Both the position numbers and the translations under genes were made by a program. Positions 10,678-60,880 of a stretch of DNA of 64,000 nt are shown here, one piece after another. Position 1 is the stretch's first letter, and every line of letters starts with the position of its first letter. Below the pieces are notes generated by a model. The model did no database searches and was not told where the DNA came from. It was given only the letters and a program-made list of their open reading frames with translations. Source of the stretch: Candidatus Zambryskiibacteriota bacterium (GTDB lineage Bacteria; Patescibacteriota; Minisyncoccia; Phycocordibacterales; WO2-35-19); contig JASNZL010000009.1 in the NCBI GenBank assembly GCA_048499675.1, positions 303 through 64,302 of the forward strand. Reading direction: 5' to 3'.

Positions 10678-10760
10678 CCGCAATGCTACCGCATAAGCGT
10701 TGCAGGCGGACCCGCCCGCCATTGCCACACTTCAGGCATTGGCAGGCGGGCGAATAAAAA
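10678..10760. repeat. GC-rich REP-like palindromic element (family 1: cacctgcccgcaatgctaYcgcataMgcgttgcaggcgg)
   Basis: Imperfect GC palindromes in an AT-rich intergenic region. Near-identical unit at 60793-60880. Confidence 0.55.
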
Positions 10761-11056
10761 CGAAAGACACAAATAGAAAAAATGTAAAATTATAATTTAA
10801 AAATCTTACAAAATAAGAGTTGAATTAGGAAGAAATATATAAAAAATAAGAGGCGTAAGTTAGGATAAAAATTTTTAATTATCAAGAACCAAATTCCCTA
10901 AAATAAACCGACCTTATTCGTTTGAGTTAAAAAGCACTTAAATATAAGTGAATTAATGGTTGATTACTTAATTATAATTACAAACATAGATCAATCTATA
11001 GTTATGAAAGGAGGTTGATTTTTACTACAAAAAATATGGTGTTCGTGGGCGCTTTT

Positions 11057-12259
11057 TTATATATACCCTCTAGTTCCTTTATTTAACTTCGGATACGCAT
11101 TGTTATAAAGTTCATTCGCCATTTCTTTTGTTAGTGTTTTATCAGGATGTCTTAAAATTATTTTAACAAGGACATTATCCTGATCTTCAAGTGCACCAAG
11201 CTTTTCCCGTGCGATAGTAGACAGCTTCTCAAAAGGAGTTCTTTCTAAAATTTCGACTTGCTCTAATAATTCACTCTCATTACCAAAAGCATCTTTAATA
11301 GCTTCGCAAATGTCCTCCTCTGTATCATCTTTATTTATGCAGTAGGACATATCTCTGGTAATGGCCGGCTGATCAGACACAGGCTTAAACTCTTTCATAT
11401 CAAACATCTGCTTAAGAATTCTTGGATCAGTTGAACGAATAAGTCTTATATCTGGAAGATTTTTCCTTGCCATTATTAGTCTTTCTACTCCCATTCCTAA
11501 AGCCAATCCGGAATACTCATCGGGGTTAATACCCGCGTTTCTTAATATACCTGGATTAATTAATCCAGCCTCAAAAACTTCTATTTCTTTTCCATTTACT
11601 CTCGCATACACCTCAATACCATTGATGGTATAAGGATGCATAGCTTCATAAACAATCATTTCAGCATCCGGACAAGCTGCTTCAAAAACAGCTTTAGCAA
11701 GTTGGAGTAGATTTTCTCTGTTAACATTTCCATATTTTTTGTTGTTTTGTAGAGTCCAAATGTCTATTTGATGAAAAACATCTAAATGTCTAGGGTCGAT
11801 AACGTCTCTTCTATAAACCAAACCGGGGAATACAAAAGTTGAGCGGTCAACATCCCTTTCTAATTTTCTGAAAGTTGAAGGCACTAACGCTGATGTGTGC
11901 GTTCTCAGAACATGATTTTCATCAGAATATCGAGTATAAGTAGAAGACCTGCCCGGATTTCCCGATGAAAATAATAGATTATCAAAATTATCCCTTGCAT
12001 CAACTACAGGATTACCCCTTATAATGCGAATGTCTGAAAAATTATACTCACTTAACTTGTTTACAACATTATCATATATCCTCCCAACAATATTTCTTTC
12101 TTGTTCATCTTGATTTGGTGTAGGCAGAGTTAAATCATTAACCGATAATAGTTTATTAATAATCTCTGTGGATGAAACCTCAAATCTCAACCGCATAAGT
12201 AAATCTGGGTTCTCTTTCGGCACTTCTATACTTGCTTTTTTTATAGCTGATTCTTTCAT
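11057..12259 (-). CDS. pheS: phenylalanine--tRNA ligase alpha subunit
   Basis: Class II aaRS motif 2 FPGLVYRRDVIDPRHLDVFHQID. Motif 3 GLALGMGVERLIMARKNL. Confidence 0.8.
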   Translation of the reverse strand: MKESAIKKASIEVPKENPDLLMRLRFEVSSTEIINKLLSVNDLTLPTPNQDEQERNIVGRIYDNVVNKLSEYNFSDIRIIRGNPVVDARDNFDNLLFSSGNPGRSSTYTRYSDENHVLRTHTSALVPSTFRKLERDVDRSTFVFPGLVYRRDVIDPRHLDVFHQIDIWTLQNNKKYGNVNRENLLQLAKAVFEAACPDAEMIVYEAMHPYTINGIEVYARVNGKEIEVFEAGLINPGILRNAGINPDEYSGLALGMGVERLIMARKNLPDIRLIRSTDPRILKQMFDMKEFKPVSDQPAITRDMSYCINKDDTEEDICEAIKDAFGNESELLEQVEILERTPFEKLSTIAREKLGALEDQDNVLVKIILRHPDKTLTKEMANELYNNAYPKLNKGTRGYI

Positions 12260-12260
12260 A

Positions 12261-13433
12261 TTAAAAATATTTATTTAAGAACTCTTTAACCTCTTTAAGT
12301 TTGACAGGGTCTGCATATTGACTCGGGAATATATTATAGTTGCTTTCTTCAAAAAGTTCCGGCCACTTATCCACAAATATCTTGCGTACCCCCTCCATTA
12401 AAGAAAGGCCAAGGTTTGGGTAAACATCTTCCACACTATGAGCTAGATAATAAATGATGTTGCGCTGGTACGTACTTTGTTCGTCTTGGCGTTCTTGGTA
12501 ATTAGACAGGCTGTATTTAGGGTAACAAGCATCCAAAATAATTTTTGGTATATCCCACAAAGGCATTAGGAGTCTTGTTGAACCAAATTTCCGTACTGGG
12601 AATTCAAGAGGTTTTTGTCCATTCATAATCGAAAACAATAAATCTGAAAGTAAATCTTCACGATTAAAGCCCAGTATATATTCATTGGCATTGTATTTCT
12701 TACAAAGTTTTCGCGCGACAATAGAGATAAGATAAGTACCAAAAAAGTGACTTGTATTACTACCAAACTTTTCACAATACTCATTATAGAAATCACTTAG
12801 AGATTTTTTCATCTTTAACAGCTCCTCTATTTCCTTATTATTATAGACATAATGTGTCAAATTATGATCGGCACAAAGTTTAGAAGCTCGTTCTGCTGCA
12901 GATGCAGGCCATATTGGCTCAAAGACGATAGTAAAAAAAATAAATTGTTTACCAATTAAGGTTTTGAGCCCTTGTGCAAGAGTATTACTATCTCCTCCAC
13001 CAGAAATACCTACAATCAAAGTTCTGCTTTGACTATTTTTTTTAATAAAATCAGTAATTTTTTCTTTTACTAAATTCTTTGCAGAATCAGGATTTAGCTC
13101 ATGAATTATTTCTCTACAGCCCTCATTTCCAAAATTAAATTCAGGAACAACTATCACCGGGTTATCGACCTTGCTATACGTGGTACTCTGTGGAAGCACA
13201 TCACGCAAGTCGGTATTCCTAATACAATGTAAAAAAATTTTTTCTTCTGGAGGAATAGCGAAAATAAAAGTATTAAGTGGAATTGGACATGTTTCCTCTT
13301 TTGTTTTTATATAACCTTGAAAAAGGTTTGGAGGAATTCGTTTTGTTCGGAGAACATCCTCTAGAGTGAGGGAATCGTCCATTTCTACCACTATCTCTTC
13401 AGAAGCGGTTTTTATAATGATACTTCTTAACAT
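12261..13433 (-). CDS. PP-loop superfamily ATP pyrophosphatase (TilS/ThiI/TtcA-like tRNA-modification enzyme candidate) with ~140-aa N-terminal extension
   Basis: SGGGDS PP-loop (LIVGISGGGDSNTL). Immediately upstream of pheS and probably co-transcribed. Confidence 0.45.
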   Translation of the reverse strand: MLRSIIIKTASEEIVVEMDDSLTLEDVLRTKRIPPNLFQGYIKTKEETCPIPLNTFIFAIPPEEKIFLHCIRNTDLRDVLPQSTTYSKVDNPVIVVPEFNFGNEGCREIIHELNPDSAKNLVKEKITDFIKKNSQSRTLIVGISGGGDSNTLAQGLKTLIGKQFIFFTIVFEPIWPASAAERASKLCADHNLTHYVYNNKEIEELLKMKKSLSDFYNEYCEKFGSNTSHFFGTYLISIVARKLCKKYNANEYILGFNREDLLSDLLFSIMNGQKPLEFPVRKFGSTRLLMPLWDIPKIILDACYPKYSLSNYQERQDEQSTYQRNIIYYLAHSVEDVYPNLGLSLMEGVRKIFVDKWPELFEESNYNIFPSQYADPVKLKEVKEFLNKYF

Positions 13434-13894
13434 ATACTAACAAGTGCAAAATACTAATTGAACGCCGCAAGGGATGATGTACACATTATATGTTCTATCT
13501 TAGTATCGGTTAAACTACATAATCCTTTGTCAGCTAAGGAAATAAAAAGGTTCTTATCGGTATTCTCAGAAATGATCCCAATCTTACGAATTTCTTTTTT
13601 AGCTAATGTAGAAGAGTTTTTCATATTATATATTATTAAGTTTATTAATAAAAACTAGATGAAATCGCATTTATGCACGAAACGCGAATACACATATTTA
13701 TAATACACGGAGTTATAATATTGTCAATTTTTTGTATAACCACACCCATTTTTACACTCGACTCGTAGTTTAGAAACAAATAACTGGAACAGGAAAGAAC
13801 CTTTAGTGAGGTTAGTTTTTTGAAAGAATAGTGGAATCGTTTGATATTGTAGAACAAAAAATAATTTACCATCTTTCTTATTAGCATGATTCGC

Positions 13895-13985
13895 CCGCCT
13901 GCAACGCCTGGAGCGTAGCACTGGCGGGCAGGCCCGCCTGCCAGCGCCTGAAGCGTAGCACTGGCGGGCAGGCCCGCATTAGCGG
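13895..13985. repeat. GC-rich REP-like element, two tandem ~43-bp units (family 2: gcccgcctgc-N-agcgtagcactggcgggcagg)
   Basis: Direct tandem duplication of a GC palindrome in an AT-rich intergenic region. Confidence 0.55.
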
Positions 13986-14037
13986 ATTGGTGAGTAACTT
14001 TACAAACTTTCTAACTTGCGCCTTTCTAACTTTCTTA

Positions 14038-14541
14038 CTATTTAAGTCCTTTACAATTGCTCGCTGGTGTATAACCTTTTGCTCTCGCCTCCTCTATAGA
14101 ATTAAAAGTAATCAAATTTTTCTCTGCAATTTGTTTTGCTCCAGCACACCATGGATAATGATACTTAGTTCCATTTTTTGAACCAACAACAATTTCAGAT
14201 GGATTTTGATTCGAATTTTCTATATTAACAACAGAGATAACCGCTGAAGCCCCATCTTTTGCCCTTTCTGTATTTATTTTCTGTTGCCCATCTAAATTTT
14301 GCAGATTTTGTACATTTCCATTTATTACCTTCACTGGAACTTTTTTATCCTCCAGACCAGAAATTCTACCGAGCGAAAAGGAAGAGATAGCAACCAAAAT
14401 GACACAAGCGACAACAAAACTCCTACTATCCAAAAAATTTTCCAACCTTTCTTTTGGTGTAAGTTTTAGATTTTCATCAAAATATAGAGAGTCCACATAC
14501 TCTTCAGTTACGTCTAAATTGTCCTTTTTAATATCACTCAT
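14038..14541 (-). CDS. membrane-anchored protein with C-terminal Cys-containing small domain (YHYPWC...NCKG), unknown function
   Basis: TM helix at residues 40-60. Conserved-looking YHxxxC/..C C-terminal motif. Confidence 0.35.
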   Translation of the reverse strand: MSDIKKDNLDVTEEYVDSLYFDENLKLTPKERLENFLDSRSFVVACVILVAISSFSLGRISGLEDKKVPVKVINGNVQNLQNLDGQQKINTERAKDGASAVISVVNIENSNQNPSEIVVGSKNGTKYHYPWCAGAKQIAEKNLITFNSIEEARAKGYTPASNCKGLK

Positions 14542-14879
14542 ATATAAAAGTAATAACTATATTCTACATTGATTTTTTACGATTTGCATTTTATCTAACT
14601 TTGTATAACCCTAACTCTCTACATCTAAAACCTCTCACCTCCAAGCTCCAACCTTCTTTCTTCCCATTTAGAATAATTAGGTTAATTAGTATAATTCTAT
14701 TATCTTCCCTCCCACCTCTGCCCCCAATCCTTTAAATCATATGTCTTATTTCTTACTTCTTATCTCTTTCGAGCTTGCATTATCCCCCAAACTATATTAT
14801 ACTTTTTTCAAGTCAATACTTTTTGACTTTTTCGTTTTTACTTTATAAACTTTACACTTTATAACTTTTAACTAATTTT

Positions 14880-15152
14880 ATGGCACATAAAAAAGCCGCA
14901 GGAACAACAAAAAATGGTAGAGATTCCAATCCAAAATATCTCGGTATCAAACTAACTGATGGAGCAGTATGTAAAGTTGGTTCTATTATAGTACGACAAA
15001 GAGGCTCAAAAATACTTCCCGGAAACGGTGTTAAACTGGGCAAAGACTACACACTATTTGCTGTAAAAGACGGCAAAGTAAAAATGTCCTCAAAAAGAAA
15101 AGTTCACTTTGATGGCACAACAATAATCAAAAAGGTAGCGAGCGTAGTCTAA
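14880..15152 (+). CDS. rpmA: 50S ribosomal protein L27
   Basis: [22 protein letters not shown]...IIVRQRGSK is a near-canonical L27 N-terminus. Confidence 0.9.
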
Positions 15153-15219
15153 AAAATACTTCTAAAAGTTATCACAAGAAAATCTGGAACTCTCCAGATT
15201 TTCTTGTATAATTTTATTA

Positions 15220-15768
15220 ATGACAGGAACAAGAATAGCATCGACCAAAGGCTTTACTCTTATAGAATTATTAGTTGTGATTGCTATTATTGGAGTTTTA
15301 TCTGGGATAGTTTTTTCTGGAATAAACAACGCCAGAGCCAAAGCTAGAGATACGCAGAGAATTGCAGAAATAAGATCAATAATGAACGCATTGGAATTGT
15401 ATCGTAGTACTAATGGCTCGTATTTGGTATCTGGTAACTGTGGCGCAACAGTACCAAACAGTGCTTGGTGTAACAGTGTTCAATCATTAAGTAATGATCA
15501 TTGGATAAGAAACGGAACAACAAACTTATCACAATTCATAAGCAAAGATCCGATTGATCCCCAGCAGGGCTCCACTGCGGTTTTTGGAGGTGCTACATAT
15601 TCTTATTACTCACCTTCTGGAGGCGCATGGTATATGATAGTGTATAGACTTGAGAATCCAAATAAAAAACTGGAAGATATTGACGGTATAAAAAGTTGTA
15701 CAGGCACAACATACCACTACGGAAACGGAACAAACGGTATTCTAACTGTCGGAACGAGTTGTATTTAA
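15220..15768 (+). CDS. type IV pilin / pseudopilin-like protein with prepilin N-terminal methylation domain
   Basis: KGFTLIELLVVIAIIGVLSGIV: class III signal peptide with a G|F cleavage site. Confidence 0.7.
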   Translation: MTGTRIASTKGFTLIELLVVIAIIGVLSGIVFSGINNARAKARDTQRIAEIRSIMNALELYRSTNGSYLVSGNCGATVPNSAWCNSVQSLSNDHWIRNGTTNLSQFISKDPIDPQQGSTAVFGGATYSYYSPSGGAWYMIVYRLENPNKKLEDIDGIKSCTGTTYHYGNGTNGILTVGTSCI

Positions 15769-16208
15769 GAAGCATTTACACTCAAAACAAACTCCGCTTT
15801 GTTATTTCCTACTACAACAGGAATCTTGTGTTCCCCTATTTCCTTTATCGGCACAGTAATATCCAAATAATCAGAATCCAAACTAATTCTTGCTTGCTCG
15901 TGCAAAGCTTTTACTATTTCATCATTATGAATTTTTTCAAACAAATGACCTTTTTCGTTGGCTTTTTTTGATATAGTAACCTTAACATCTTTTAGCATTT
16001 CAATTTGTTTCTTTGCTAAATTTTCTTTTATTTCCATCTCTGCAATATTTGTCTCTTGTTGTATTTTTGCATTTTTGATAGCTTCAGGACTTGCATATAC
16101 TGCTAGTTTTTTTGGTATCAAAAAATTGTTTGCGTATCCATCTGACACATCTTTTACATCATACTTTCTACCAACTCCTTTTATATCTTGTTTTAGAATT
16201 ACTTTCAT
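15765..16208 (-). CDS. rplI: 50S ribosomal protein L9. The likely start is MKVILKQ, internal to the ORF-track call.
   Basis: MKVILKQDIKGVGRKYDVKDVSDGYANNFLIPKKLAV matches the L9 N-terminal domain. Confidence 0.8.
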   Translation of the reverse strand: MKVILKQDIKGVGRKYDVKDVSDGYANNFLIPKKLAVYASPEAIKNAKIQQETNIAEMEIKENLAKKQIEMLKDVKVTISKKANEKGHLFEKIHNDEIVKALHEQARISLDSDYLDITVPIKEIGEHKIPVVVGNNKAEFVLSVNAS

Positions 16209-16262
16209 ATAATTTAGCGAAATCATGTCGCACAATACCACACTTTGAGGTGCAACCTAGAT

Positions 16263-17513: not shown

Positions 17514-17522
17514 AAAATAAAT

Positions 17523-18425
17523 ATGATAACAACATACTCACAAAACGAACAGACATGGACTGATATAAGCTCCCCAACAAAGGATGAGCTCGATTCCCTT
17601 ATTATGGCTCAAAATTTGGACCCTTTGATAGCAAAGGACCTAAATACCCCAACACCAAAGCAATACACCAAAAAATTTGATAATTCTGTTTATGTTGTTT
17701 TGCACATACCTTTTTTTAAACATTCAAACAGAGAAAGTCTAGAGCAGGAAATTGATTTCATAATTTCAAAAGATGGTCTTATCACCGCTAGATACGACAG
17801 CATTGATGCACTTCACCACTACTCAAAATATTTGGAGGCAAACGAGACATTTAACAAACCCAGCGATTCTCACATATTTGTGGGGCTAATGAAAGAAGTG
17901 TATAAGTTTTTGTTTGATGAAATAGAATATATGAAAGACTGGACCAAAGAGATAGAAAAAAGAATTTTTCAAGGCAAAGAAAAAGATATGGTTTTTTCTC
18001 TGTCAGAAGCATCAAGAAATATTTTAGTATTTCAAAGAAACATAAAACCTCATGGGGATGTTTTCAAAAAAATGATGGAATTTAGTAAAGATATTATATC
18101 CAAAGATTTTGAAAAGGATATGACTACCCTTATAGAAGAGTGGAATAGACTAATTATTGAAACTCAAAATACCAAAGATATGCTCGACGAACTAAAAGAA
18201 ACAAACAATGCCCTCTTGTCCACCAAACAAAATGAGATAATGAAAATTTTTACAATTCTTGCGTTTGTTACTTTCCCACTATCTCTAATTGCTTCAATTT
18301 TCGGAATGAACACCAATTATATACCTCTAGTTGGACTGCCAAATGACTTTTGGGTAGTTATTGGAATTATGACTATAATGAGTATTGCTATGTTTATCTA
18401 TTTCAAGTATAAAATATGGATATAG
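17523..18425 (+). CDS. corA: CorA-family Mg2+/Co2+ transporter
   Basis: Two C-terminal TM helices with the GMN motif (FGMNTNYIPL). ~300 aa. Confidence 0.7.
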   Translation: MITTYSQNEQTWTDISSPTKDELDSLIMAQNLDPLIAKDLNTPTPKQYTKKFDNSVYVVLHIPFFKHSNRESLEQEIDFIISKDGLITARYDSIDALHHYSKYLEANETFNKPSDSHIFVGLMKEVYKFLFDEIEYMKDWTKEIEKRIFQGKEKDMVFSLSEASRNILVFQRNIKPHGDVFKKMMEFSKDIISKDFEKDMTTLIEEWNRLIIETQNTKDMLDELKETNNALLSTKQNEIMKIFTILAFVTFPLSLIASIFGMNTNYIPLVGLPNDFWVVIGIMTIMSIAMFIYFKYKIWI

Positions 18426-18532
18426 GAGAGTTAAAAGTTAAAAGTTTTAAAGTTCATCAAGTAAAAAAGAATTTGATATTGTTTAATTTTCACTTTTTAA
18501 CTTGCGCTTTTATAACTTTATAAACTAAGCTT

Positions 18533-22988: not shown

Positions 22989-23040
22989 CTTTTTAGATTC
23001 TAAACGTTAAATTTATTATATTACAAAAAACACCACTAAC

Positions 23041-23455
23041 CAATAAATTTTGTCGTATTAGTTTTATTGGTTGTATTAGTTTTATTGGTCGTATTAGTTT
23101 TATTGATCGTATTAGTCCTATTGGTCGCATCCTTCTTATCCTTCTTATCCGTCCCTAGTCCCATTCGTCCAATTTTCCCTCCCCGCCCCATTCGACCTAT
23201 TCGTCCTATCTGTCTTAATTGGTCCTATCAGTCCCGTCTCCTCTTTTCTCCACTTTTTTCTTTCCTTTTTCGATTCGTCCTATCTGTCCTATTCGTCCTA
23301 TCTGTCTTATTGGTCCTATTTTCCTCCCCACCCCATTCGTCCTATCTGTCCAATTTTCCCTCCCCGCCCCATTCGACCTATTCGACCTATTCGTCCTATC
23401 TGTCTTATTAGTCCTATTTACTTTTTAAAAACCTGCTCCACCCATTACTTCGTAT
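23041..23455. repeat. degenerate 9-bp tandem repeat array 1 (YNGTCCTAT on the + strand). It begins with 4x an 18-bp unit (cgtattagttttattggt) and contains conserved internal blocks.
   Basis: Directly visible periodicity. Fills the whole intergenic gap upstream of lepA. Confidence 0.8.
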
Positions 23456-25334: not shown

Positions 25335-25690
25335 CTTTTCTATCTATCCTACTTCTTCTGTCTCATCCCCCTTTTCTTAATTCGTCGCATCCATCTTATT
25401 TTCCTTCCCCTTCCGTCAAATTCGACTTATCCGTCCTATTTGTCCCATTAGCCCTATGCGTCCAATTCTTTTTTTATTCGTCCCATTAGTCCCATCCGTC
25501 CTATTTGTCCTATTAGTCCTATTTCCCTCCCCGCCCTATCAGTCCTATTCGACTTATCCGTCCGATTCCCTCTCTCTTTTTCTTTCCTTTTTCGATTCGT
25601 CCCATCCGTCCCCTATCCGTCCCACTAGTCTTATTAGTCCTATTCGACTTATTTGTCCTATTTCCCCACCATCTCCCTGCTCTCCAAAAT
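25335..25690. repeat. 9-bp tandem repeat array 2 (same family and orientation)
   Basis: ccgtcctat/tagtcctat units plus conserved blocks tatttccctccccgccc and ctctctttttctttcctttttcgattcgtcc. Confidence 0.8.
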
Positions 25691-27299: not shown

Positions 27300-27850
27300 T
27301 TTTTTAAAACGCAAAACTCACTTCCCTAGTTCCATTATCCAATCTTCCTTCTACTTTTTTCTTCTTTTTTCCCTATCCAACTTATTTTCCTTCCCCTTCC
27401 GTCAAATTCGACCTGTCTTATTTCCCTCCTCCGCCTTATTCGTCCTATTAGTCCTATCCGTCCTATTAGTCCCATCCGTCCGATTCCCTCTCTCTTTTTC
27501 TTTCCTTTTTCGATTCGTCCCATCCGTCCCATCCGTCCTATCTGTCTTATTTCCCTCCTCTGCCTTATTTGTCCTATCCGTCCTATTCGACCTATAAGTC
27601 CTATTTGTCCTATTAGTCCTATTTCCCTCCCCGCCCTATCAGTCCTATTCGACTTATCCGTCCGATTCCCTCTCTCTTTTTCTTTCCCTTTTTAATTTGT
27701 CCCACCGTCCTATTAGTCCTATCCGTCCTATCCGTCCTATCTGTCTTTTTTGTCCTATTTCCCTCCTCTGCCTTATTTGTCCTATCCGTCCTATTCGTCC
27801 TATCCGTCCTATCCGACCTATTGGTCCTATTTCCCTCCGCTTTCTTCGTC
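27300..27850. repeat. 9-bp tandem repeat array 3
   Basis: Longest array. Several copies of the conserved blocks. Its 3' part overlaps the acidic C-terminus of the 27827..28489 gene. Confidence 0.8.
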
Positions 27851-28539: not shown

Positions 28540-28960
28540 TGTAATTCTAATTTTATTTTTAATTCGTCCCATCCGTCCTATCCGTCCTATTCATTTTTTA
28601 TTTGCCCTATCCGACCTATAAGTCCTATTTCCCTCCTCTGCCTTATTTGTCCTATCCGTCCTATTCGACTTATCCGTCCTATCAGTCCTATTCGACTTAT
28701 CCGTCCGATTCCCTCTCTCTTTTTCTTTCCTTTTTCGATTCGTCCTATCCGTCCTATTAGTCCTATCCGTCCTATTTCCCTCCTCTGCCTTATTTGCCCT
28801 ATCCGTCCTATTCGACTTATCCGTCCAATTCTCTCTCTTTTTCTTTCCCTTTTTAATTTGTCCTATCTGTCCAATTTTTTTATTTACCCTATCCAACCTA
28901 TAAGTCCTATCTGTCTTATTTGCTCCATCCGACTTATTGGTCCTATCAGTCCTATTTCCC
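28540..28960. repeat. 9-bp tandem repeat array 4
   Basis: Same units and blocks. Preceded by an AATTCTAATTTT AT-rich repeat at 28495-28560. Confidence 0.8.
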
Positions 28961-31744: not shown

Positions 31745-32230
31745 CAACTCTCCCCTTTTATTTTATCTTGCCCCAATTCGTCCTATTTGTTTATCCACCC
31801 CATCTTCCTTTTTCCTTATCTGTCCTATTTGTCCTATGAGCCCCATCCGTCCTATTTCCCCTCTCTTTCCTCATCGGTCTTATACGTCCTATTTCCCTTC
31901 TCTGCCTTATTCGTCCTATTAGTCTTATTGGTACTATTTCCCTCCCCGCCCGCCATTCGTCCTATAAGTCCTATTTCCTCTCTCTTTTTCTTTCCCTTTT
32001 TAATTTGTCCTATCCGTCCGATTAGTCTTATTAGTCCTATTCGTCCTATTCGACCTATCGGTCCTATTTCCCTTTTATACGTCCTATTTGTCCTATCCGT
32101 CCGATTAGTCTTATTAGTCCTATTCGTCCTATTCGACCTATCGGTCCCATTTCCCTTTTATACGTCCTATTTGTCCTATCCGTCCAATAAGTCCTATTTC
32201 CCGCCCCCCTTCCTTCCTCTTACAACAAAC
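31745..32230. repeat. 9-bp tandem repeat array 5
   Basis: Contains an internal ~90-bp duplication (32030-32110 and 32111-32190). Confidence 0.8.
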
Positions 32231-35289: not shown

Positions 35290-35460
35290 ACTTATTAGTT
35301 CCATTCGTCTTTATTTGTCCTATTTTCTCTTTTCCTTCCTCCTATTTCACTTTTCTGTTTCTTAATCAGACCTATTCCCCCTTTTTTCATCCGTCTTATT
35401 CGTCCAATAAGTCCTATTTTTTGCTCGTCCTATTGGTCCATTTAGTCCTATTACCTTATC
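35290..35460. repeat. 9-bp tandem repeat array 6 (short, degenerate)
   Basis: gtcctat/gtcttat units, same orientation. Confidence 0.65.
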
Positions 35461-37799: not shown

Positions 37800-37985
37800 T
37801 TCTTTTTTTAATTGACCCTTTCTGACTTATACGTCCTACTTGGTCTTATTCGTCTTATTGGTCCTATTTGACCTATCCGACTTATTCGACCCATCGGACC
37901 CATTCGTCTTATTGGTCCTATTTGACCTATCCGACTTATTCGACCCATCGGACCCATTCGTCCTATCGGTCCTATGGATTTTCTG
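37800..37985. repeat. 9-bp tandem repeat array 7, including 2x a 54-bp unit
   Basis: tcgtcttattggtcctatttgacctatccgacttattcgacccatcggacccat appears twice. Confidence 0.75.
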
Positions 37986-42879: not shown

Positions 42880-42939
42880 CTATCTGCTTTTTTGTTTTTT
42901 ATGTTTTGTTTTAAACTTTTACCCACTAATTACTGTTGA

Positions 42940-44679
42940 CTATTGACTCTTATCTCTAAACTCTTGCTCCTCAACTATTGACTGTTGACTCTCAACTGTT
43001 GACTCTTCATTCGTGTCGAGTTTAGTGTCATTTGAAAAATTTTCGTAGCTTTTCGTATCTTTCGCCCGCCTGCGAGCGCCTGCAGTCGCAGACAATGGCG
43101 GGCAGGCATAATTTTCGTATCGTTTCTTTTTCTTAAACAACAGCAACCAAAATTTTCTAAACAACCAAATCAAGAGTAGAACAAAAAGTATGAACCAGAA
43201 GTATTCAGACAAAATAATTAGAAACCCTGTTATTTTGTCAGCCAAAACAAAATTGTTTGATAGAGCAAGTGATGCAACAAGATTCCCGTCTATTTTTTTT
43301 AGTCCTTGATTTTTGTGATCGAGAATAGATATATGCATTCCGTAATTTCCAGATCTGCCAAGTGGAGCAATCACCGCCTCATAACCATTTTTTTCTTTGT
43401 TTATCCTCAAAAGGAAAGAGAATACTTTTGATGGATCTATCGGGTCGTAGAGTGTGATACTAATTGTTTTTAAAACTTCAGGAACTTTTTCGTAAGGCAG
43501 TCTGACTGTAAATGGTTTATCGCCAATAAGAGAAACTGTGTTTTTTTCAAATGGAAGTATTTTTCCTTCTTGAATAAATTCAAAATCTAACAAAGACAAC
43601 TCTTCTATCATTTGATCTACAATCGGGGATTTTGGGAGGAAGTCATATATATAAGGAGTGTGATCTACTATTTCCCCCGGTAGCGCTATGCGAGCATGAG
43701 CAATCGCTCCAGACGCATAATTTCCATTTTTATCTACCGCAAAAATTGTATAGAAATACAATTTTCCTTTTTCTACATCTCTATCAACATAAGATTCGCC
43801 TAATCCTCTATAAATTTCTTTTCCATCTAATATGTCCTTCGGGTAAAAAATGTCTGAACGGATTATCCTCACTTCTCTTAGATCTTTATCTGGTGGATTG
43901 TTCCAAGACAAATCTATCGACGAATCATTTTGTATTGCAACAAAATTTATTGGGTTTGAAGGTGGAGTAAAGTCAGGCAATGATTTTGTTTGGAATGTGG
44001 TTTCGGCAACCACCTGTCTACCAAAAGCATCTACTGATTGTATCTTTATATAGTATGAGGTATCACTCTCAAGATCTGAGATTTTTATATTGTGTGCCGG
44101 AATATATAATTTGCTTTGTATAGAACCCAACTCATAGTCTTTTGTTTTTCCCCAGAAAACCGTTCCCAAAGTAGCCCTGTTTGTTATCCAATTAATGACT
44201 GCAGAATCTGGCTGTGTAGCAATGTTTATATTGATAAAAATCAAAGAACTTCCACCGGGAGGCCCGACTACAGGTTTTGGAGTTGTAACAAGGACCGAAT
44301 CAGAAAGAGGCGATTCATTTGTTGCATTATCTACGGTAGACACTCTATATTCATATAAAGTATCTGCTTGTAAGTCAGTGTCGTAGAAAAATAAATCTGG
44401 AGTAGTTCCTATAAACACACCGTCTCTATATATCTTGTAATGAAGAATTCCAGCCGAAGCTGTCCCAGCATCCCAAGAAAGGTTGATTTGGCTCGTCGAT
44501 ACTGCTGTAGCGACGAGGTTGGTCGGGGCAGTTGGTGGTATACCATCTGTCACTGTTACACTCACCTCAAAAGTGCTCTCAGAAGCATAGACGTTTTTTA
44601 CACCAGAAAATGAACCAAACAAAAGAACGAGACAAACGTAGGCTGATATTATTTTTTTACTTTTTGAATTTAATTTCAT
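42940..44679 (-). CDS. membrane-anchored surface protein with fibronectin type III domains. Its C-terminal tail is encoded partly by an inserted REP/TIR sequence.
   Basis: Signal peptide. FN3 motifs (PTAPTNLVA...INLSWDA...YEYRVSTVDNATNES). C-terminal TM helix and KKKKR stop-transfer. The tail codons ACPPLSATAGARRRAKDTKSYENF derive from the GC palindrome at 43065-43112. Confidence 0.55.
   Translation of the reverse strand: MKLNSKSKKIISAYVCLVLLFGSFSGVKNVYASESTFEVSVTVTDGIPPTAPTNLVATAVSTSQINLSWDAGTASAGILHYKIYRDGVFIGTTPDLFFYDTDLQADTLYEYRVSTVDNATNESPLSDSVLVTTPKPVVGPPGGSSLIFININIATQPDSAVINWITNRATLGTVFWGKTKDYELGSIQSKLYIPAHNIKISDLESDTSYYIKIQSVDAFGRQVVAETTFQTKSLPDFTPPSNPINFVAIQNDSSIDLSWNNPPDKDLREVRIIRSDIFYPKDILDGKEIYRGLGESYVDRDVEKGKLYFYTIFAVDKNGNYASGAIAHARIALPGEIVDHTPYIYDFLPKSPIVDQMIEELSLLDFEFIQEGKILPFEKNTVSLIGDKPFTVRLPYEKVPEVLKTISITLYDPIDPSKVFSFLLRINKEKNGYEAVIAPLGRSGNYGMHISILDHKNQGLKKIDGNLVASLALSNNFVLADKITGFLIILSEYFWFILFVLLLIWLFRKFWLLLFKKKKRYENYACPPLSATAGARRRAKDTKSYENFSNDTKLDTNEESTVESQQSIVEEQEFRDKSQ
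43035..43135. repeat. solo copy of the MITE terminal repeat (ttttcgtaNcttttcgtatctttcgc...attttcgtatc) split by a family-2 GC-rich REP palindrome (43065-43112)
   Basis: Aligns with the right inverted repeat at 9301-9343. The 3-nt 'acg' is replaced by a 46-nt palindrome gcccgcctgcgagcgcctgcagtcgcagacaatggcgggcaggc. Confidence 0.5.
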
Positions 44680-48441: not shown

Positions 48442-48857
48442 TAAGGATATTATACTATCTCGGATACACGAGATACTAAATATTTCTGTGGATAAATAAG
48501 GTAAAAAAATTTAGTTTAAATTATATCAAAAAAGTGATAATGAACCATCAAAAATCTTTATAAAAAAACATACAAAAAAGTGCCAGATTACACTCACACC
48601 ATCACCAACTCAAAAAAGGTTCTATGAGCAAAATTTCTATCCAAAAACGAACGTTCTAACTCATAAATCAAATAACAGTCCGATCTACCATAATATTTAA
48701 CTTAATTTAATTCACTATTTAATTAATCTATCTGCTATCAAATTTCATAACCAATAAAACAAGAAAAAATTCTGATGTATTTATAAAATCTTATCCACAT
48801 AACTTATTGTTAATCGTTGTAATTTTTGTATAATGATTAGTAACGTTTAACAAGCTT

Positions 48858-49094
48858 ATGGAAAACTATATAACTATAAAAAACGCGGCTTCAATTTTGG
48901 GTGTATCAAAAATGACACTTAGAAATTGGGACAAATCTGGTAAACTAACCGCCCTTAGACACCCACTCAACAATTACAGAGTTTACCGAATTTCTGATAT
49001 AGAAAGAATAATTGAACTTATTGAAGCGAGTCCTCTTGTCATACAGAGAAAAAAAGATGAGATTAAGAAGCTATCGGTGAGACACCTAGATTAG
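48858..49094 (+). CDS. excisionase/MerR-family helix-turn-helix DNA-binding protein
   Basis: ITIKNAASILGVSKMTLRNWDKSGKL matches the Xis-family HTH (TIGR01764-like). Confidence 0.5.
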   Translation: MENYITIKNAASILGVSKMTLRNWDKSGKLTALRHPLNNYRVYRISDIERIIELIEASPLVIQRKKDEIKKLSVRHLD

Positions 49095-49675
49095 TTTTTC
49101 TCTGATTTAAAAATTAAAAACATATCATATATGATATGTTTTTAATTTTTAAAATATAGATTTTTCAAATTTTACAGATTCTGTAGGAATACTATAACAC
49201 TACATTATAGACGAGTTAAACAAAACTTACTTTTAATCAATTCTTCTTTGTCCACCATATTCAAATTACAACACTAGGCTAGTAGTATAAACTCACCAAA
49301 AAAACCGCATATCAAAATTATATAATTCTTATGAATTTTCATTGATACAGATTTACATCTTTGAGTAATTTTTAATACCAAATACAAATACCATCAAATA
49401 TTACTGGCATTTATAAACAAGGCATACCGCTCAACTATCTTTTGTATTTTGTATCTAGTTCTACTATAAAATTTATTCATACCCCCTATTTAGTATATGC
49501 TTAAATGTACCCAAAAAGTCAATTTTAAATTTAAACACACATAAAAAAGTTTTGTGTTTTGATCATAGACAAGAAATGTACTTTTCTAATGACCTCAATT
49601 GACTATTTTTACAAAAAATCACGATCATTTTATTATCTTTTTTGACAATAAATTTCATAACTATGTAATAAAAAT

Positions 49676-49720
49676 CTTATTGTATCCATATCAAACCCTC
49701 AGGGATTGATATGACAACCT
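49676..49720. repeat. 15-bp-arm inverted repeat (tatcaaaccctcagg-N14-cctgagggtttgata), IS200/IS605-like subterminal hairpin
   Basis: Perfect palindrome 70 bp upstream of the HUH transposase gene. Confidence 0.5.
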
Positions 49721-49791
49721 GAGGGTTTGATACTTATCCACACCCCAAAACACATCCCCCCATTAACCTGATATTATTAAATTATCAAAAT

Positions 49792-50454
49792 ATGAGATAC
49801 GAAACATTTACAAGTAATGAATATTATCACTTATACGCTCGTGGTTCTAATCAAGAGAATATTTTTATTGACGAGCATGACAAAGTGCGTTTTATTTTTT
49901 TGTTATGTCTTTACACTTCCCCAACACGGATCAACAACACTTTTTGGTACGTAAACAATTTCATTAAAAAAGGCGTTTTTGGTTTTAAACCAGACAAACT
50001 TTCGGATGTGACCAAAGATAAAAGCTTGGAACTTAACTGCTTCTGTGTTATGGATAATCATTTTCATATATTAGTCCGCAACGTGGAAGATAATATGATT
50101 TCTGTGTATATGCATAGAGTACTCACTGCATACAGTAAATACTTTAATGCAAAGTATCGGAGAAAAGGTCATGTTTTTGATGGACCATACAAGGCTGTCC
50201 ACATTAAAAACAACAACCAAATACTTCATTTATCAGCCTATATACACAAGAATCCTAAGGATATAAAAGAGTGGTCAAATAAGTATGAGAAATACCCTTG
50301 GTCCTCTCTCTCAGACTACATAAGTACAAATAAGTGGGGTAATTTTATAAGTAAGGACATAATACTTGGTCAATTCAAAACACAAACAGATTACAAAAAT
50401 TTTGTGTCCACAAGCACAGCAAAAGAATATTTATTTGAGGATTTGCTCAAATAA
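49792..50454 (+). CDS. IS200/IS605-family Y1 HUH transposase-like protein (RAYT-like), 220 aa
   Basis: HuH motif DNHFHILV. Catalytic-Tyr region LHLSAYIHKNP. The 3' end overlaps gatB convergently by 24 nt. Confidence 0.55.
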   Translation: MRYETFTSNEYYHLYARGSNQENIFIDEHDKVRFIFLLCLYTSPTRINNTFWYVNNFIKKGVFGFKPDKLSDVTKDKSLELNCFCVMDNHFHILVRNVEDNMISVYMHRVLTAYSKYFNAKYRRKGHVFDGPYKAVHIKNNNQILHLSAYIHKNPKDIKEWSNKYEKYPWSSLSDYISTNKWGNFISKDIILGQFKTQTDYKNFVSTSTAKEYLFEDLLK

Positions 50455-51831: not shown

Positions 51832-51839
51832 ACCATTAT

Positions 51840-52757: not shown

Positions 52758-52772
52758 AATGAAGTAATTTAA

Positions 52773-55439: not shown

Positions 55440-55491
55440 AAGATTATTTGATTGTTATTTAAACAATTTCTCGTATCGAAATAACAAAAAA

Positions 55492-57459
55492 CTACTCGTG
55501 AATTATTTTTATGCTTGTTTTTAATACTTCGCTCTTTTTTGCACACAGAGCTATTGTTCTCACAAATTCAGAATGGCTCCACACAAGTGGCATAGCAGAT
55601 ATTGGGCTACCTGTATACGGATTTATTTGCTCTGATAAAACAGAATTTTTTGAATTTTTAGTAACCCATTCTATATCTTCAAAGACTTTTTCTAGATCAT
55701 TAACAGAATTAGCACAAGCAATTTTATACTGAGTCAGCCACAAAGTGGTCACGAACCAAGGATTACCGAGAGCTTCTCCACCCACATTTGCATAAGCATC
55801 ATTCTCATATCTTGGAACGCCACCTACTATATTTCCTTTTTTTAACCTCTGATTCAAAACTTCAAACGCCTCTTTCATTTTAGGATCTTCGGGAGACAAA
55901 ATACCATATCTAAATACTCCATAAAAACTACTAACATCTAGATTTGGATCTTTTTCTAATTTTTCACCAACCAAATTAATAAATCTTTTTTCGTTATCAT
56001 CCCATAAATAATTTAATATAGAACTTCGAAGAGACTCAGCTTCTTTGTAAAAATTAGCCATATCTTCCTCTTTTCCAAGTGTTTTAGCAAAATGTCCGGC
56101 AGAAATTAACGCACCATACACAACTGATGCCGTATACGAAGACACCCCGTACTTTTCTTCCCATAAATCATAACTAGGCAGAGGTAGTCCCGTATTAGCA
56201 TCTCTATAGCGAATCATAAACTCCGCAGATCTTTTTATAAATCTATTATATATACTTTCAACAAACTCCAAATCCTTTGCTCTAGAATAATGCTCCCACA
56301 ACCCAACAAGGAGGATTGCTGTCTCGTCTTCCTGAATAGCAAGCTGTCTTCTACCATCCTTTACCCATGGATGCCACGAGCTTCCTAAAGAATAATCTGG
56401 CTGATATTTATGCAAAATATAACCATCTTCTGTTAATACTTCATCTGCAAATTCATAAAATTTTCTTGATAAATCATAAAATCCTACCAAATCAAAGGTC
56501 CATGCCGTATAACACGCATCTCGTGGCCAAACATAACTATAAGTATCCCCACCATACTGAACATTACCAGAATCAGCCGAAGCCAAAATACCACCTCTGT
56601 TATCGGTATGAGTTCTCATAACAAACAAAGAATCATAAAACAATTTTTTTGATTCTTCAGATAAACCATAAAATGGTATTGAAACTTGATTAACCCACGC
56701 TTGCCAAAAATCCTGAGTAGAATCAATTAAGTGTTCGCCTGATTTATTGAGTACATAATCCAAGAGTTCACAAACCTCTCTATAAGTCTCACCAACTGCA
56801 ATCCAGTAATAAACTGTGACTGAAGAATTTTCCGGAATTTCTCTTTTCCACGATATAACAGAATCAACTATGCCATGCTCTATTGGATTTTTTGACAACA
56901 ATCCATCTTCCGCATCCCTCCAAGTCCCCTCTTTACCTTCTATACCACAAAAACCTATACCATAATCATCAAAAGGTTTGTTTTCGCAAACCCCTCCTAC
57001 CAAAAAAACCCTTCTACCCTTATAATGTATTATTGACTCAATGGTACTTGAGAAATATGCAGTATCTGCATGATTTGTATCACCAATTTTGAATTGTTGA
57101 TTAAGGAAAATACTGATTTCTCTTTTTTTATTACTATCATTATTTATTTTAATTTTCCTAAGGAAAATGTTTTTTTCATTGTATACCACATCAAAAGATT
57201 CAATTGAGACATTAATTTTGTCATTACGCAAAGTAACGTTACTCACCATTGTGTTTTTTTGATATTCTATTTTAGCTTTCCAATCCCCATTATCAACCCA
57301 ACTAATTACTCCATCAACAAAAACCCCAATCCTATGAACTTGGTTTTGGCCTACATGATTTTCGTGACCAACATATGGAAAATAGAAATCCCTTACTTGT
57401 CCATAATTATCTAAACAAACAAGTGAATTGCCATTACCCAGAACTAATGAACGTGCCAT
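55492..57459 (-). CDS. glycoside hydrolase family 15-like (glucoamylase/glucodextranase/trehalase-related)
   Basis: YSYVWPRDACYTAWTFD and (alpha/alpha)6-barrel-type motifs. 655 aa. Confidence 0.55.
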   Translation of the reverse strand: MARSLVLGNGNSLVCLDNYGQVRDFYFPYVGHENHVGQNQVHRIGVFVDGVISWVDNGDWKAKIEYQKNTMVSNVTLRNDKINVSIESFDVVYNEKNIFLRKIKINNDSNKKREISIFLNQQFKIGDTNHADTAYFSSTIESIIHYKGRRVFLVGGVCENKPFDDYGIGFCGIEGKEGTWRDAEDGLLSKNPIEHGIVDSVISWKREIPENSSVTVYYWIAVGETYREVCELLDYVLNKSGEHLIDSTQDFWQAWVNQVSIPFYGLSEESKKLFYDSLFVMRTHTDNRGGILASADSGNVQYGGDTYSYVWPRDACYTAWTFDLVGFYDLSRKFYEFADEVLTEDGYILHKYQPDYSLGSSWHPWVKDGRRQLAIQEDETAILLVGLWEHYSRAKDLEFVESIYNRFIKRSAEFMIRYRDANTGLPLPSYDLWEEKYGVSSYTASVVYGALISAGHFAKTLGKEEDMANFYKEAESLRSSILNYLWDDNEKRFINLVGEKLEKDPNLDVSSFYGVFRYGILSPEDPKMKEAFEVLNQRLKKGNIVGGVPRYENDAYANVGGEALGNPWFVTTLWLTQYKIACANSVNDLEKVFEDIEWVTKNSKNSVLSEQINPYTGSPISAMPLVWSHSEFVRTIALCAKKSEVLKTSIKIIHE

Positions 57460-57662
57460 ATTCTAATAATACAGCTTTTCCTTTGTTTCAAAAAGTTTTT
57501 ACTGGGAATAATGAGTTAAAAAGATCTTGTAATTTTTAACCAATTTTAATTTTCAATCATTTAATTTTCAATTCTAATTTTCTTTTTTACTCTGATACCC
57601 AGATTCAAAATTCCAGACTCTATCTTCTTCTTATCTCGTATTTCGTATTTCCTATCTCTTAT

Positions 57663-58763
57663 TTAAATTCCTTCTGCTTTTAGTTTATTTACTGCTTCTT
57701 TTGCAGATTTAGATATTTTCTTAGGAATTTCTACTTTTACTTTTATGAGTATATCTCCTCTTTTTTTATTATTATCTGGCACACCCTTGCCTTTTATTTG
57801 TAAAATATCGCCAGTATTAACTCCTTCTGGGATATTTAGCTTAGAAATTCCGTCAAGTGTAGCCACTTCATAAGTTGCACCAAGAAGAGCGTCAGAAAGC
57901 TTAACGTCCAAATTCATAACCAAATCATTACCTTCTTTGTGAAATATTTTGTGTTTTTTGACATGAGTCTTTACATACAAATCACCTGATACACCACCCT
58001 TGATTGCCTCCCCAGCACCAGAGAGTCTTATCATTTCTCCATTTTCTATACCAGCTGGTATTTTAATTTTTACTTCTTCTTGTTTTTTGTTTATTCCAAG
58101 ACCGTCACAAGTATTGCATTTTTCCTTTGGAACTTTGCCTGTACCACTACAAGTTTCGCAGTTTTTTGTCATTTCTATTGAGCCAAAAATTGTTCTCTTT
58201 TGTTCACGGATAGAACCCTTGCCGTTACAAGTATTACAAGTAATCATTTCGGTTCCCTTTTTTGCACCACTTCCGGAGCAAGTATCACAACTTGATACTT
58301 TATTAATCAAAAACACTCTCTCAACTCCAAAAACCGCTTCCTCAAAAGTAAGTTCTACATCTATCGATATATCTCTCCCACGCTTAACTCTAGAACCACG
58401 TCCTCCTCCAAAAAATTCTCCAAATATATCACCTATGTCAAAGTCAGCACCGAATCCTCCTCCATTCGCAAAACCAGAAAAATCAAAACCAGATGCCTGA
58501 CCACCCCCCGCCCCAGCAAAATCATTCCAATTAAAACCACCCGCTCCACCCTGTCCAGATGTATACTCTCCATATGTATCATATTGGGCTCTCTTCTTTT
58601 CATCAGAAAGCACACTATATGCCTCATTTAGTTCTTTAAACTTGTCTTCATTACCACCCTTTTTGTCTGGATGGTATTCATGAGCCAGCTTTCTAAAAGC
58701 CTTCTTTATATCGTCTTTTGAGGCTTTTTTGTCAACACCTAGAATTTCATAGTAGTCTTTCAT
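57663..58763 (-). CDS. dnaJ: molecular chaperone DnaJ
   Basis: J-domain YYEILGV...HPDK. Gly-rich linker. Four CxxCxGxG zinc-finger repeats. Confidence 0.9.
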
Positions 58764-58860
58764 CCCGTAGTAGATTTTGGCAATGTTATAATAACGATTC
58801 CGTAGGAATTATTGCCAAAATTCACTACGGGATTCATATTGTCCTAATTATAGCAGAATT

Positions 58861-60750
58861 TTAACTTTTTGTCTCGTCTGGTTTGTCCTCTGTTTTTGGT
58901 TCTTCAGACTTATTTTCTTCGACTGGATTCTGACCACTCGATTCTGGATTATTTTTCTTCATCTCCTCACCTATTTTTTGCATTTCTTTTGAGAGTTCCT
59001 CGGTTGCTTTCTTGATTAGATCAATATCTTCACCTTCTTTTGCTTTTTTAAGCTCATCTATTTTTGAATTTATCCCCGTTTTTACTTCATCAGATACCTT
59101 TCCTTCTGCATCTTTAAGTGCTTTCTCTGCAGTATAAACCATTTGCTCTGAAAGATTTCTTGCTTCTGCCAAATCTTTTTTCTTTTGGTCCTCTGAAGCA
59201 TGAGCTTCTGCCTCCTTTTGCATTCTTTCAATGTCTTCCTTTGAAAGACCAGATGAACCCTCAATCTTGATAGATTGCTCTTTTCCACTTGATTTGTCTT
59301 TTGCTTTGACATTCAAAATACCATTTGCATCAATATCAAAGGTAACTTCAACTTGTGGCACACCTCTCGGAGCTGGCGGAATTCCATCAAGAATAAATCT
59401 ACCCAAAGACCTGTTGTCGTTTGCAAGAGGTCTTTCTCCTTGAACTATATGTATTTCAACACTTGTTTGATTGTCAGCTGCCGTTGAAAAAACTTGAGAA
59501 CGGGACGCTGGAACAGTTGTATTTCTTTCTATAAGTTTTGTAGCCACACCTCCCATTGTCTCAATCCCCAAAGATAGTGGAATGACATCCAAAAGCAAAA
59601 TATCTTTTACATCTCCTGCTATAATACCTCCTTGAATAGCAGCACCGAGTGCCACCACTTCGTCTGGGTTGATAGATTTGTTTGGTTCTTTACCAAAAAA
59701 TCTCTTAACTTCTTCAACTATTTTTGGCATTCTTGTTTGACCTCCCACCAAAACAACCTCTTCTATTTCGTTTACCTTGAATGGAGAAGCTTCTATTGCC
59801 CTCTTTGTTATATCTATTGCTCTTTGTATAAACTCGTCAGCAATTTCCTCCAATTTAGCTCTCGTCATTTTTATTAAGAGGTGCCTTGGACCACTTGAAT
59901 CAGAAGTAATGAATGGAATATTTACTTCTGTTTCCATTGCTGTTGAGAGTTCTATTTTTGCTTTTTCTGATGCCTCGTCCAATCTCTGCAAAGCAAGCGG
60001 GTCTTTTGTGATATCAATTCCCGACTCTTTTTTGAATTCCTCAGCAAGCCAGTGAATTATTTTTTGGTCTATATCTTTTCCGCCCAAGTGACTATCACCA
60101 TCTGTTGATTTCACCTCAACCACATCATCTCCAACTTCTAGGATTGAAATATCAAAAGTTCCACCTCCAAAGTCAAAGACGGCAATTTGTTCGTTTTTCT
60201 TTTTGTTAAACCCATAAGCAAGCGCTGCCGCTGTTGGTTCGTTAATAATTCTTTTTACATCAAGGCCAGCAATTGCGCCTGCATCTTTTGTCGCCTTTCT
60301 TTGAGCATCATTAAAGTATGCCGGCACAGTGATTATCGCTTCTGTAATTTTCTCTCCCAACTTTGCTTCTGCATCTGCTTTTAGTTTTGAAAGAATCATT
60401 GCCGATATTTCTTCTGGTCGATAATTCTTTTCTCCTATTTTTATGTTTACCCCACCTGTTTCTGACTTAGTCATTTCATACGGCACAGTTTTTAAGTCCT
60501 TTTGAACAGCTTCTTCTTCAAAATTGTGCCCTATAAATCTTTTTATGCCGAAAACTGTGTTTTTTGGATTTGTAACAGCTTGTCGTCTTGCAAGAAGACC
60601 CACCAATCTCTCTCCAGTTTTTGAGACAGCAACAATAGAAGGAGTCGTTCTCGCACCTTCTGCGTTTTCAATTATTTTTGGATTTCCTGATTCCATTACA
60701 GCTACTGCGCAGTTTGTTGTTCCTAAGTCAATTCCTATTATTTTACTCAT
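58861..60750 (-). CDS. dnaK: molecular chaperone DnaK (Hsp70)
   Basis: [22 protein letters not shown] and other Hsp70 signatures. Confidence 0.95.
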
Positions 60751-60792
60751 ATCTTTTTTTCATTAATTTATAATAATTAATTGCGACACTTA

Positions 60793-60880
60793 TCCACCTG
60801 CCCGCAATGCTATCGCATACGCGTTGCAGGCGGGCCTGCCCGCAATGCTATCGCATACGCGTTGCAGGCGGGCGAATTCA
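60793..60880. repeat. GC-rich REP-like element, two tandem 43-bp units (family 1)
   Basis: cctgcccgcaatgctatcgcatacgcgttgcaggcgggc x2, about 95% identical to 10678-10720. Confidence 0.6.

Follow-up and report, generated by a model that had tools for sequence, protein, structure and literature searches.

The question raised by this locus is how a set of short GC-rich palindromes has spread, and whether a transposase-like gene lying among them is responsible. The stretch examined, hereafter called the window, comprises 64,000 nucleotides (nt) of a Candidatus Zambryskiibacteriota bacterium (assembly GCA_048499675.1, contig JASNZL010000009.1, positions 303 to 64,302). It contains seven palindrome units at four loci as well as a gene for a protein of 220 amino acids (aa) with HUH and Y1 motifs, which resembles the REP-associated tyrosine transposases (RAYTs; REP, repetitive extragenic palindromic sequence). 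We consider it likely that the seven units represent one family of non-autonomous, selfish mobile DNA hairpins of 35–42 nt. The family is apparently undescribed and is similar both to REPs and to the Rickettsia palindromic elements (RPEs), and the RAYT-like gene of the window is probably not its mobiliser.

The palindromic element and its distribution

A preliminary description of the window had placed GC-rich palindromes at four loci, and they were found at all four. The units, designated by locus (A to D), are the following:

10673–10710, plus strand: unit A1, 38 nt, subtype CAATGCTAYCGCATAM with a terminal A, in the spacer between pheS and an ftsX-like gene
10711–10750, plus strand: unit A2, 40 nt, subtype CCATTGCCACAC…, unlike A1, which it abuts head-to-tail
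13894–13932, minus strand: unit B1, 39 nt, in the spacer between a PP-loop (TilS-like) gene and an Ada-Zn-like gene
13933–13972, minus strand: unit B2, 40 nt, head-to-tail with B1 (profile E = 9e-10)
43065–43106, minus strand: unit C, 42 nt, in the 3' tail of an fn3/PAP-like open reading frame (ORF) at 42940–44679
60797–60834, plus strand: unit D1, 38 nt, in the grpE-dnaK spacer
60835–60872, plus strand: unit D2, head-to-tail with D1 and 100% identical to it

Three of the four loci (A, B and D) hold doublets that are joined head-to-tail with zero spacer. Locus A had been given as 10678–10760 and not called a doublet; the palindrome is there, but as a doublet of two subtypes that spans 10673–10750. 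Nor are there two palindrome families, as had been proposed, since 'family 2' is 'family 1' read on the opposite strand and the ends CCTGCCCGC…GCAGGCGGG are shared. B1 and B2 match at 93%, and a truncated palindrome arm (13973–13977) follows directly after B2. All copies have minus-strand housekeeping genes as neighbours and lie either between them or at a gene end. The GC content of the window was measured at 36.8% and not at the 33% first given for the genome, and a scan for at least 70% GC over 30 nt picked out, among intergenic sequence, exactly these four loci. The 9-mer CCTGCCCGC, with at most one mismatch allowed, occurs 21 times in the window compared to 3.0 ± 1.7 times in shuffled sequence, and none of 100 shuffles reached 21. 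Moreover, a profile built from the copies of other genomes recovered the seven units and no further ones.

Each unit consists of 5'-CCTGCCCGC, a variable inner stem-loop and GCAGGCGGG-3', with a length of 38–42 nt in the window and 35–42 nt across genomes. When the units are co-oriented, the fuller consensus reads 5'-CCTGCCCGC-(C/A)A(T/G)TGC…-GCAGGCGGG-3'. The ends are common to all subtypes and only the middle varies, each subtype having its own inner stem-loop. With regard to folding as single-stranded DNA, eight of 12 sequences gave z-scores from -2.3 to -5.9, and the remaining four were weaker (-1.65 to -2.03); A1 folded at -10.8 kcal/mol (z = -3.2) and A2, whose profile E-value was 2.6e-8, at -15.1 kcal/mol (z = -4.7). 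The two DNA strands fold about equally. Columns 10 and 33 of the alignment covary, being C-G in 28 sequences and A-T in 17, and this stem covariation, together with the subtype-specific inner stem-loops, fits recognition of a folded strand. In its structure the element is what a REP is expected to be, that is, a short (20–40 nt), imperfect, GC-rich palindrome with a stem-loop. Searches of Rfam at both gathering and permissive thresholds returned only tRNA-Gly and chance microRNA-type matches, and the element has no Rfam family.

When 185,579 species genomes were scanned with an exact pattern of about 22 specified bases, at least 118 matches were obtained in other genomes, where fewer than 10 would be expected by chance according to our own estimate. 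Several genomes have four to eight or more loci each among the matches listed. As judged by their titles, the matching records include Saccharibacteria, Berkelbacteria, Microgenomates (Gottesman-, Roizman-, Collier- and Shapirobacteria) and Parcubacteria (Zambryski-, Vogel-, Taylor-, Falkow-, Magasanik-, Moran-, Buchanan- and Portnoybacteria). The element spans all major lineages of the Patescibacteria, also called the candidate phyla radiation (CPR), and the Desulfobacterota, hence at least two phyla. The Desulfobacteraceae contig is genuine: the element adjoins a prolyl-tRNA synthetase (ProRS) gene whose product is 85–86% identical to proteins of Desulfatiglandales and Desulfobacterium, and a sister contig encodes an aldehyde:ferredoxin oxidoreductase. 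An 'uncultured Gammaproteobacteria' metagenome-assembled genome (CAZWYJ01; loci L014, L018, L036, L044, L074, L081, L092 and L098, the L numbers denoting loci from other genomes) was rejected as a further host, as its GyrA is 80% identical to that of Uhrbacteria and the genome belongs to the CPR. Because of this, the claim of a distribution across phyla is based only on the verified Desulfobacterota contig, and other TPA_asm titles among the matches (Pseudomonadales, Actinomycetota) may be equally unreliable. No copy was detected in 2.9 million viral contigs, so that carriage by phages is unsupported.

Insertion sites and copies within genes

To judge from close relatives, the palindromes come and go. 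Doublet D is absent from L001 despite an identical DnaK and nearly identical flanking DNA; it is present in L002, the contig of which ends within the element. Copy C is absent from L121, where the neighbouring protein is 92% identical, and there were no copies in 20.6 kb of syntenic DNA. As regards polymorphism at loci A and B, the contigs with the exact PheS protein stop short of the spacer. The most precise comparison was obtained in L095, where a filled site with the arrangement GTAATCCGTGAAA, 40-nt element, TCCGTGCCAAAA is separated by about 100 nt from an empty one, GTAATCTGTGAAATCCGTGCCAAAA; this pair reveals a precise insertion with no target duplication. In L051 an element occupies the same site as in L095 in the opposite orientation. 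The presence or absence of copies in close relatives and the precise filled/empty pair bear out the preliminary description in so far as it recognised dispersed palindromes of the REP type, and they support the palindromes being mobile and dispersed, with REP-type behaviour.

The flanks were profiled for 126 distinct copies. A purine occupies position -1 in 86% and a G position +1 in 97%; otherwise the flanks are unrelated. Different subtypes abut exactly head-to-tail at locus A of the window and in L082 and L116, and such heterologous tandems rule out slippage and point to the end of a resident copy as a preferred target. Furthermore, the flanks can pair with each other at seven or eight of eight positions in 15 of 128 copies, as in GGGGCGGGTT…AACCCGCCCC, compared to none in a shuffled control. 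Only one inverted palindrome pair was seen (120 nt apart, in L011). Taken together, these results show that the element moves as exactly one unit, precisely and without target-site duplication, that its insertions usually follow a purine and have either orientation, and that it often comes to lie directly beside the terminus of a resident copy, which produces head-to-tail tandems, or within the loop of a different hairpin.

It could be argued that no transposition is involved, and that the pattern arose by slippage or duplication together with homologous recombination of hypervariable spacers after DNA uptake, the element being a passenger. The tandem D1/D2, with its 100% identity, would fit such an origin, as would the differences at C and D, which comprise whole spacer blocks including TTTCGTA repeats, and the Desulfobacterota copies that lie inside larger repeats with shared flanks. 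It conflicts, however, with the precise 40-nt filled/empty difference, with the many unrelated essential genes that are hit at different positions, with the tandems of different subtypes, which cannot come from slippage, and with the unrelated flanks in 126 of 137 copies. We therefore give this explanation scarcely any credence.

Several repeats accompany the palindromes. In the Desulfobacterota (L095, positions 1–2951, and L019, L021 and L051) the palindrome lies within a larger repeat, GTAATCCGTGAAA/TCCGTGCCAAAA; in L095 this repeat adjoins a Y1-transposase gene and an ORF with a Bac_DnaA_C domain, and many AACGTCCCCCATTA repeats surround it. In the window, TTTCGTA motifs with a spacing of about 10 nt form clusters at 8779–8815, 9305–9342 and 43041–43119. 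Their occurrence beside palindromes had been noted at the outset and holds; the implied tie does not, since the first two clusters stand without a palindrome. These motifs also fill the 'empty' grpE-dnaK site of L001 (about 1280–1360), a strain in which the whole grpE-dnaK palindrome block is replaced. Rather than belonging to the palindrome, the TTTCGTA repeats form a class of their own among hypervariable spacer repeats. The 3' end of the fn3 ORF also holds a tandem array with a period of 7 or 21 nt (ACTGTTG / ACTATTG; 42925–43015), immediately 5' of copy C. Two further, unrelated palindromes are found beside doublet D in the grpE-dnaK spacer, one at 60883–60916 (CCAACTTCGC…GCGAAG…GTTGG) and one at 60924–60973 (GAATGACAC…GTGTCATTC).

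Copies were also found inside genes. A crude gene call placed 33 of 134 copies within ORFs, corresponding to an intragenic share of about 20–25%, and under stricter criteria 27 copies were located well inside long ORFs, with recurrent open frames. The encoded peptide reads GLPASA…WQAG or ARLPTPERSNGGQ, depending on the orientation. As judged by Pfam, the genes for ribosomal protein L1, Fmt, BipA, CysRS, SecA, LepA and GatB are among the intact hosts, and the domain matches extend across the insertion sites. The length is divisible by three (39 or 42 nt) in 24 of the 27 in-gene copies compared to 38 of 66 intergenic ones (Fisher p = 0.0036), which fits insertion without extra bases followed by filtering for the reading frame. 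Copy C of the window is such an in-gene case: as coding sequence it gives …CPPLSATAGARRRA…, and the C-terminal tail of the fn3 protein is rewritten relative to that in L121.

The palindromes might instead be hairpins that are kept by selection for a function in the host, as terminators, attenuators, mRNA stabilisers or protein-binding sites. The stems, which are stable and GC-rich within AT-rich spacers, and the covariation in them would be in line with this, and E. coli REPs are credited with secondary roles of this kind (PMC3733652). The tests gave a different picture. A terminator scan made no call on any copy and no T-run follows the stem. The copies fall into tandem, convergent and divergent spacers (50, 10 and 8) as the background does (288, 65 and 57), divergent spacers not being depleted, and their orientation relative to transcription is 33:23. 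In addition, both strands fold equally well, copies within coding sequence occur in both orientations and near-identical strains differ in the presence of a copy. An intrinsic terminator was accordingly rejected, as there were no scan calls, no T-run and no departure from the background of spacer types. An integron attC site (RYYYAAC … GTTRRRY) was likewise dismissed, because the nearest core, GTTGGCA, breaks two positions and the copies lie between housekeeping genes. The copies show no sign of a host-function signature, and selection for such a function is a very improbable explanation. What the data do show is survival where the element is harmless, that is, in spacers of any gene arrangement, and in coding sequence if the copy measures 39 or 42 nt.

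The RAYT-like gene and its own hairpins

The preliminary description had further pointed to an HUH ORF with a different hairpin upstream, and both were found as described apart from a small shift in the hairpin coordinates:

49792–50454, plus strand: HUH/Y1 gene, 220 aa, RAYT-like, overlapping gatB convergently
49683–49733, plus strand: upstream hairpin of the cognate type, with compensatory changes in relatives

The upstream hairpin is unique in the window. The protein matches Pfam Y1_Tnp (4.6e-9), and its NHFH motif and Y150 (…SAYIHKNP…) are conserved or nearly so. Its sole NCBIfam match was REP_Tyr_transpos (NF047646), at 40 bits against a cutoff of 80; by its sequence, then, it is only a distant relative of the curated REP-associated tyrosine transposase family. 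The AlphaFold model (pLDDT 80) has as its best PDB match 4ER8, an E. coli RAYT-REP complex, followed by the TnpA proteins of ISDra2 and IS608. Its homologues assign the window to the Parcubacteria (Zambryskibacteria-like). In relatives with 58–76% identity the same gene order is conserved, with a MerR-like gene, a spacer of about 600 nt, the HUH gene and convergent gatB. The fixed position, single copy and synteny indicate a RAYT-like gene rather than a mobile IS200 (IS, insertion sequence). A canonical IS200 was rejected on the same grounds, and also because the gene overlaps gatB at its 3' end and lacks a downstream hairpin in the window.

One explanation for the palindromes is the classical REP-RAYT one, in which they would be cognate REPs cut and dispersed in trans by the HUH protein encoded at 49792–50454. 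The whole family has conserved HUH and Tyr motifs, the NCBIfam and fold matches both lead to RAYTs, the gene is single-copy and syntenic as domesticated RAYTs are, and the lack of target duplication is consistent with HUH chemistry. However, none of 85 loci of the HUH family (774 kb) is flanked by the GC palindromes, and only three palindromes were present in these loci, each more than 2 kb from the HUH gene. Conversely, a search with tblastn and with a hidden Markov model of the family on all ORFs found HUH relatives of any kind at only two of the 118 palindrome loci listed. The HUH-bearing relatives L121, L123 and L124 have no palindromes in 55 kb.

The HUH gene of the window is instead associated with a different, conserved and covarying hairpin, and its relatives have hairpins of their own. 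In 55 genes of the family a lineage-specific hairpin lies within the 120 nt that precede the start; 29 of the 55 have it again just past the stop codon, and in the window only the upstream copy remains. A third copy is often found in-frame within the HUH gene at about +165–176 (the FIKxxxF region), co-varying with the flanking copies. Like a RAYT, the gene is single-copy, vertically inherited and accompanied by its own palindromes. The HUH-associated hairpins differ widely between loci, whereas the ends of the GC palindrome are identical across lineages, albeit by the design of the search. The GC palindromes are therefore unlinked to the HUH gene of the window, and the HUH family has its own lineage-specific hairpins. 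The supposed tie to a RAYT holds only for the RAYT-like nature of the protein (NCBIfam, 4ER8 and synteny) and not for its link to the palindromes. Inverted palindrome pairs of the REPIN type flanking the gene, which had been suggested as a test, were not seen, the doublets of the window being direct and head-to-tail. A tempting assignment of gene to element is thus corrected, and the REP-RAYT explanation is improbable.

As an example of the triple arrangement, the hairpin occurs in L129 at 1270–1300, 1475–1505 and 1995–2030, and about 28 other HUH loci are alike, including L130, L135, L138, L142, L144, L156, L171 and L173. It is also worth recording that the DnaA-box consensus TTATCCACA is found at 49734–49742, directly after the HUH hairpin, and that this box is conserved in L121, L123 and L126. 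Three of the window's four perfect sites (48487, 48791 and 49734) lie within 48442–49791, an AT-rich spacer of 1.35 kb with a GC content of about 0.29. A replication origin at this cluster was rejected, as the GC skew does not flip there.

Mobilisation, known systems and other features of the window

Each of the three rivals above (REP-RAYT, host function and recombination) is disfavoured because it conflicts with several tests, which leaves the selfish mobile hairpin as the best explanation. With regard to the mechanism, a trans-acting enzyme would recognise the element as a folded single strand, and would cut and join it at the feet of its stem. A nuclease of the HUH/Y1 type, with its 'peel and paste' chemistry, may be the best mechanistic analogue of the mobiliser. 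The analogy is founded on the hairpin nature of the element, the lack of target duplication and the fact that element ends and loops serve as insertion sites. The 150 genes that neighbour palindromes comprised 190 Pfam families with no enrichment of transposases, and a search with orphan arms gave no parent IS or other element with these ends flanking a cargo. Candidates for the mobiliser would be a conserved nuclease of the host or a trans-acting transposase of a new class.

Some observations weigh against a selfish mobile hairpin, and it should be underlined which they are. The genome scan demanded conserved ends, so that the termini look conserved in part because of how the copies were selected. 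There was a single clean filled/empty pair. At the polymorphic sites C and D the differences are not limited to the element, and because the TTTCGTA-type spacer repeats changed as well, they are not clean single events. Whereas IS608 favours the lagging strand, no strand bias is seen in the four loci of the window, although n is only 4. Finally, no mobilising enzyme was found among neighbour genes, by adjacency to HUH genes or in the parent-IS search, and for this reason an HUH-type mechanism is proposed by analogy.

Compared to known systems, the element resembles REPs and bacterial interspersed mosaic elements (BIMEs), which occur together with RAYTs in, for example, E. coli and Pseudomonas. 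It shares with them imperfect GC-rich palindromes of 20–40 nt that occur singly or clustered in spacers and are non-autonomous, conserved imperfections in the stem, and a single-copy RAYT-like Y1 gene in the same genome. In contrast to REPs, none of the 85 HUH-family loci is palindrome-flanked, about 20–25% of the element copies are intragenic, and the doublets of the window, L082 and L116 are direct, head-to-tail and without spacer rather than inverted as in a REPIN. As a rule a REP family is confined to one species or genus, whereas the ends of this element recur in all major Patescibacteria lineages and a second phylum. The REP families treated by Di Nocera et al. (2013, PMC3733652) have a conserved GTAG or CGTC tetranucleotide at one end. 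The present element has no such tag, its flanks showing only the purine at -1 and the G at +1.

RPEs are the other close parallel. They were reportedly described by Ogata and colleagues in 2000 as lying in-frame within intact and often essential genes, and also in spacers. They measure about 100–150 bp, occur only in Rickettsia (families RPE-1 to RPE-8) and add a short peptide without destroying the protein; we know of no transposase for them. The likeness is that our element also resides in-frame in intact protein genes, with 24 of 27 lengths divisible by three, as well as in spacers, and that in both cases the genomes concerned are reduced and host-dependent. It differs in being 35–42 nt long, in having no known similarity of sequence to RPEs and in the evidence for its current polymorphism and head-to-tail insertion.

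Elements of the IS200/IS605 group and those like palindrome-associated transposable elements (PATEs) resemble it in hairpin recognition, in the lack of target duplication and in tandems formed by insertion beside a short target, and the IS200/IS605 mechanism prefers single-stranded DNA. In IS200/IS605, however, two different subterminal hairpins flank a cargo and the target is 4–5 nt, whereas here one hairpin is the whole element, the target is merely a purine at -1 and no strand bias was evident (n = 4 loci). Miniature inverted-repeat transposable elements (MITEs) are likewise short, non-autonomous and dispersed, with an inverted-repeat structure, but they duplicate their target site and descend from a parent IS whose terminal repeats they share; neither a duplication nor such a parent was found for the element.

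CPR genomes are regarded as streamlined, and the open-access literature yielded no report of REP-type elements in them, no paper with the sequence of the element and none that pairs CPR with REP, RAYT or RPE. Tentatively, and with our judgement falling just on the doubtful side, we advance the combined claim of an undescribed palindromic mobile family across Patescibacteria and Desulfobacterota that is active, present in essential genes and mobilised by neither an adjacent gene nor the local RAYT-like protein. If true, even episymbionts with genomes of about 1 Mb would carry and exchange active selfish hairpins, which would provide a natural marker for population genetics at the strain level and for gene flow between CPR bacteria and their neighbours. 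It would also be a second, independent case of palindromes tolerated in essential proteins, opening their placement and tolerance to study, the first phenomenon of the RPE kind outside Rickettsia and, for a REP-type sequence, the broadest host range known. An activity that inserts a 40-nt hairpin precisely and without duplication could be a new tool enzyme for single-stranded DNA.

The window has further features of a different kind. Tandem arrays with a period of 9 nt (TATTCGTCC / GTCCTATYM, with up to about 44 copies) occupy many of the spacers between large minus-strand genes (23052–23418, 25400–25680, 27437–27831, 28555–28957, 32003–32198, 35383–35452 and 37828–37975); all are C-rich on the plus strand, and no long ORF runs through them. 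Two tandem ORFs on the minus strand, 1824–2990 and 3181–4356, encode 388 and 391 aa that are 86% identical. They have no Pfam match, their GC content is about 0.52 compared to 0.37 for the genome and a GC hairpin follows each; they may have been recently acquired or duplicated. Finally, PheS (11057–12259, minus strand) contains an FDX-ACB anticodon-binding domain within the same 400-aa chain, an arrangement like that of mitochondrial PheRS.

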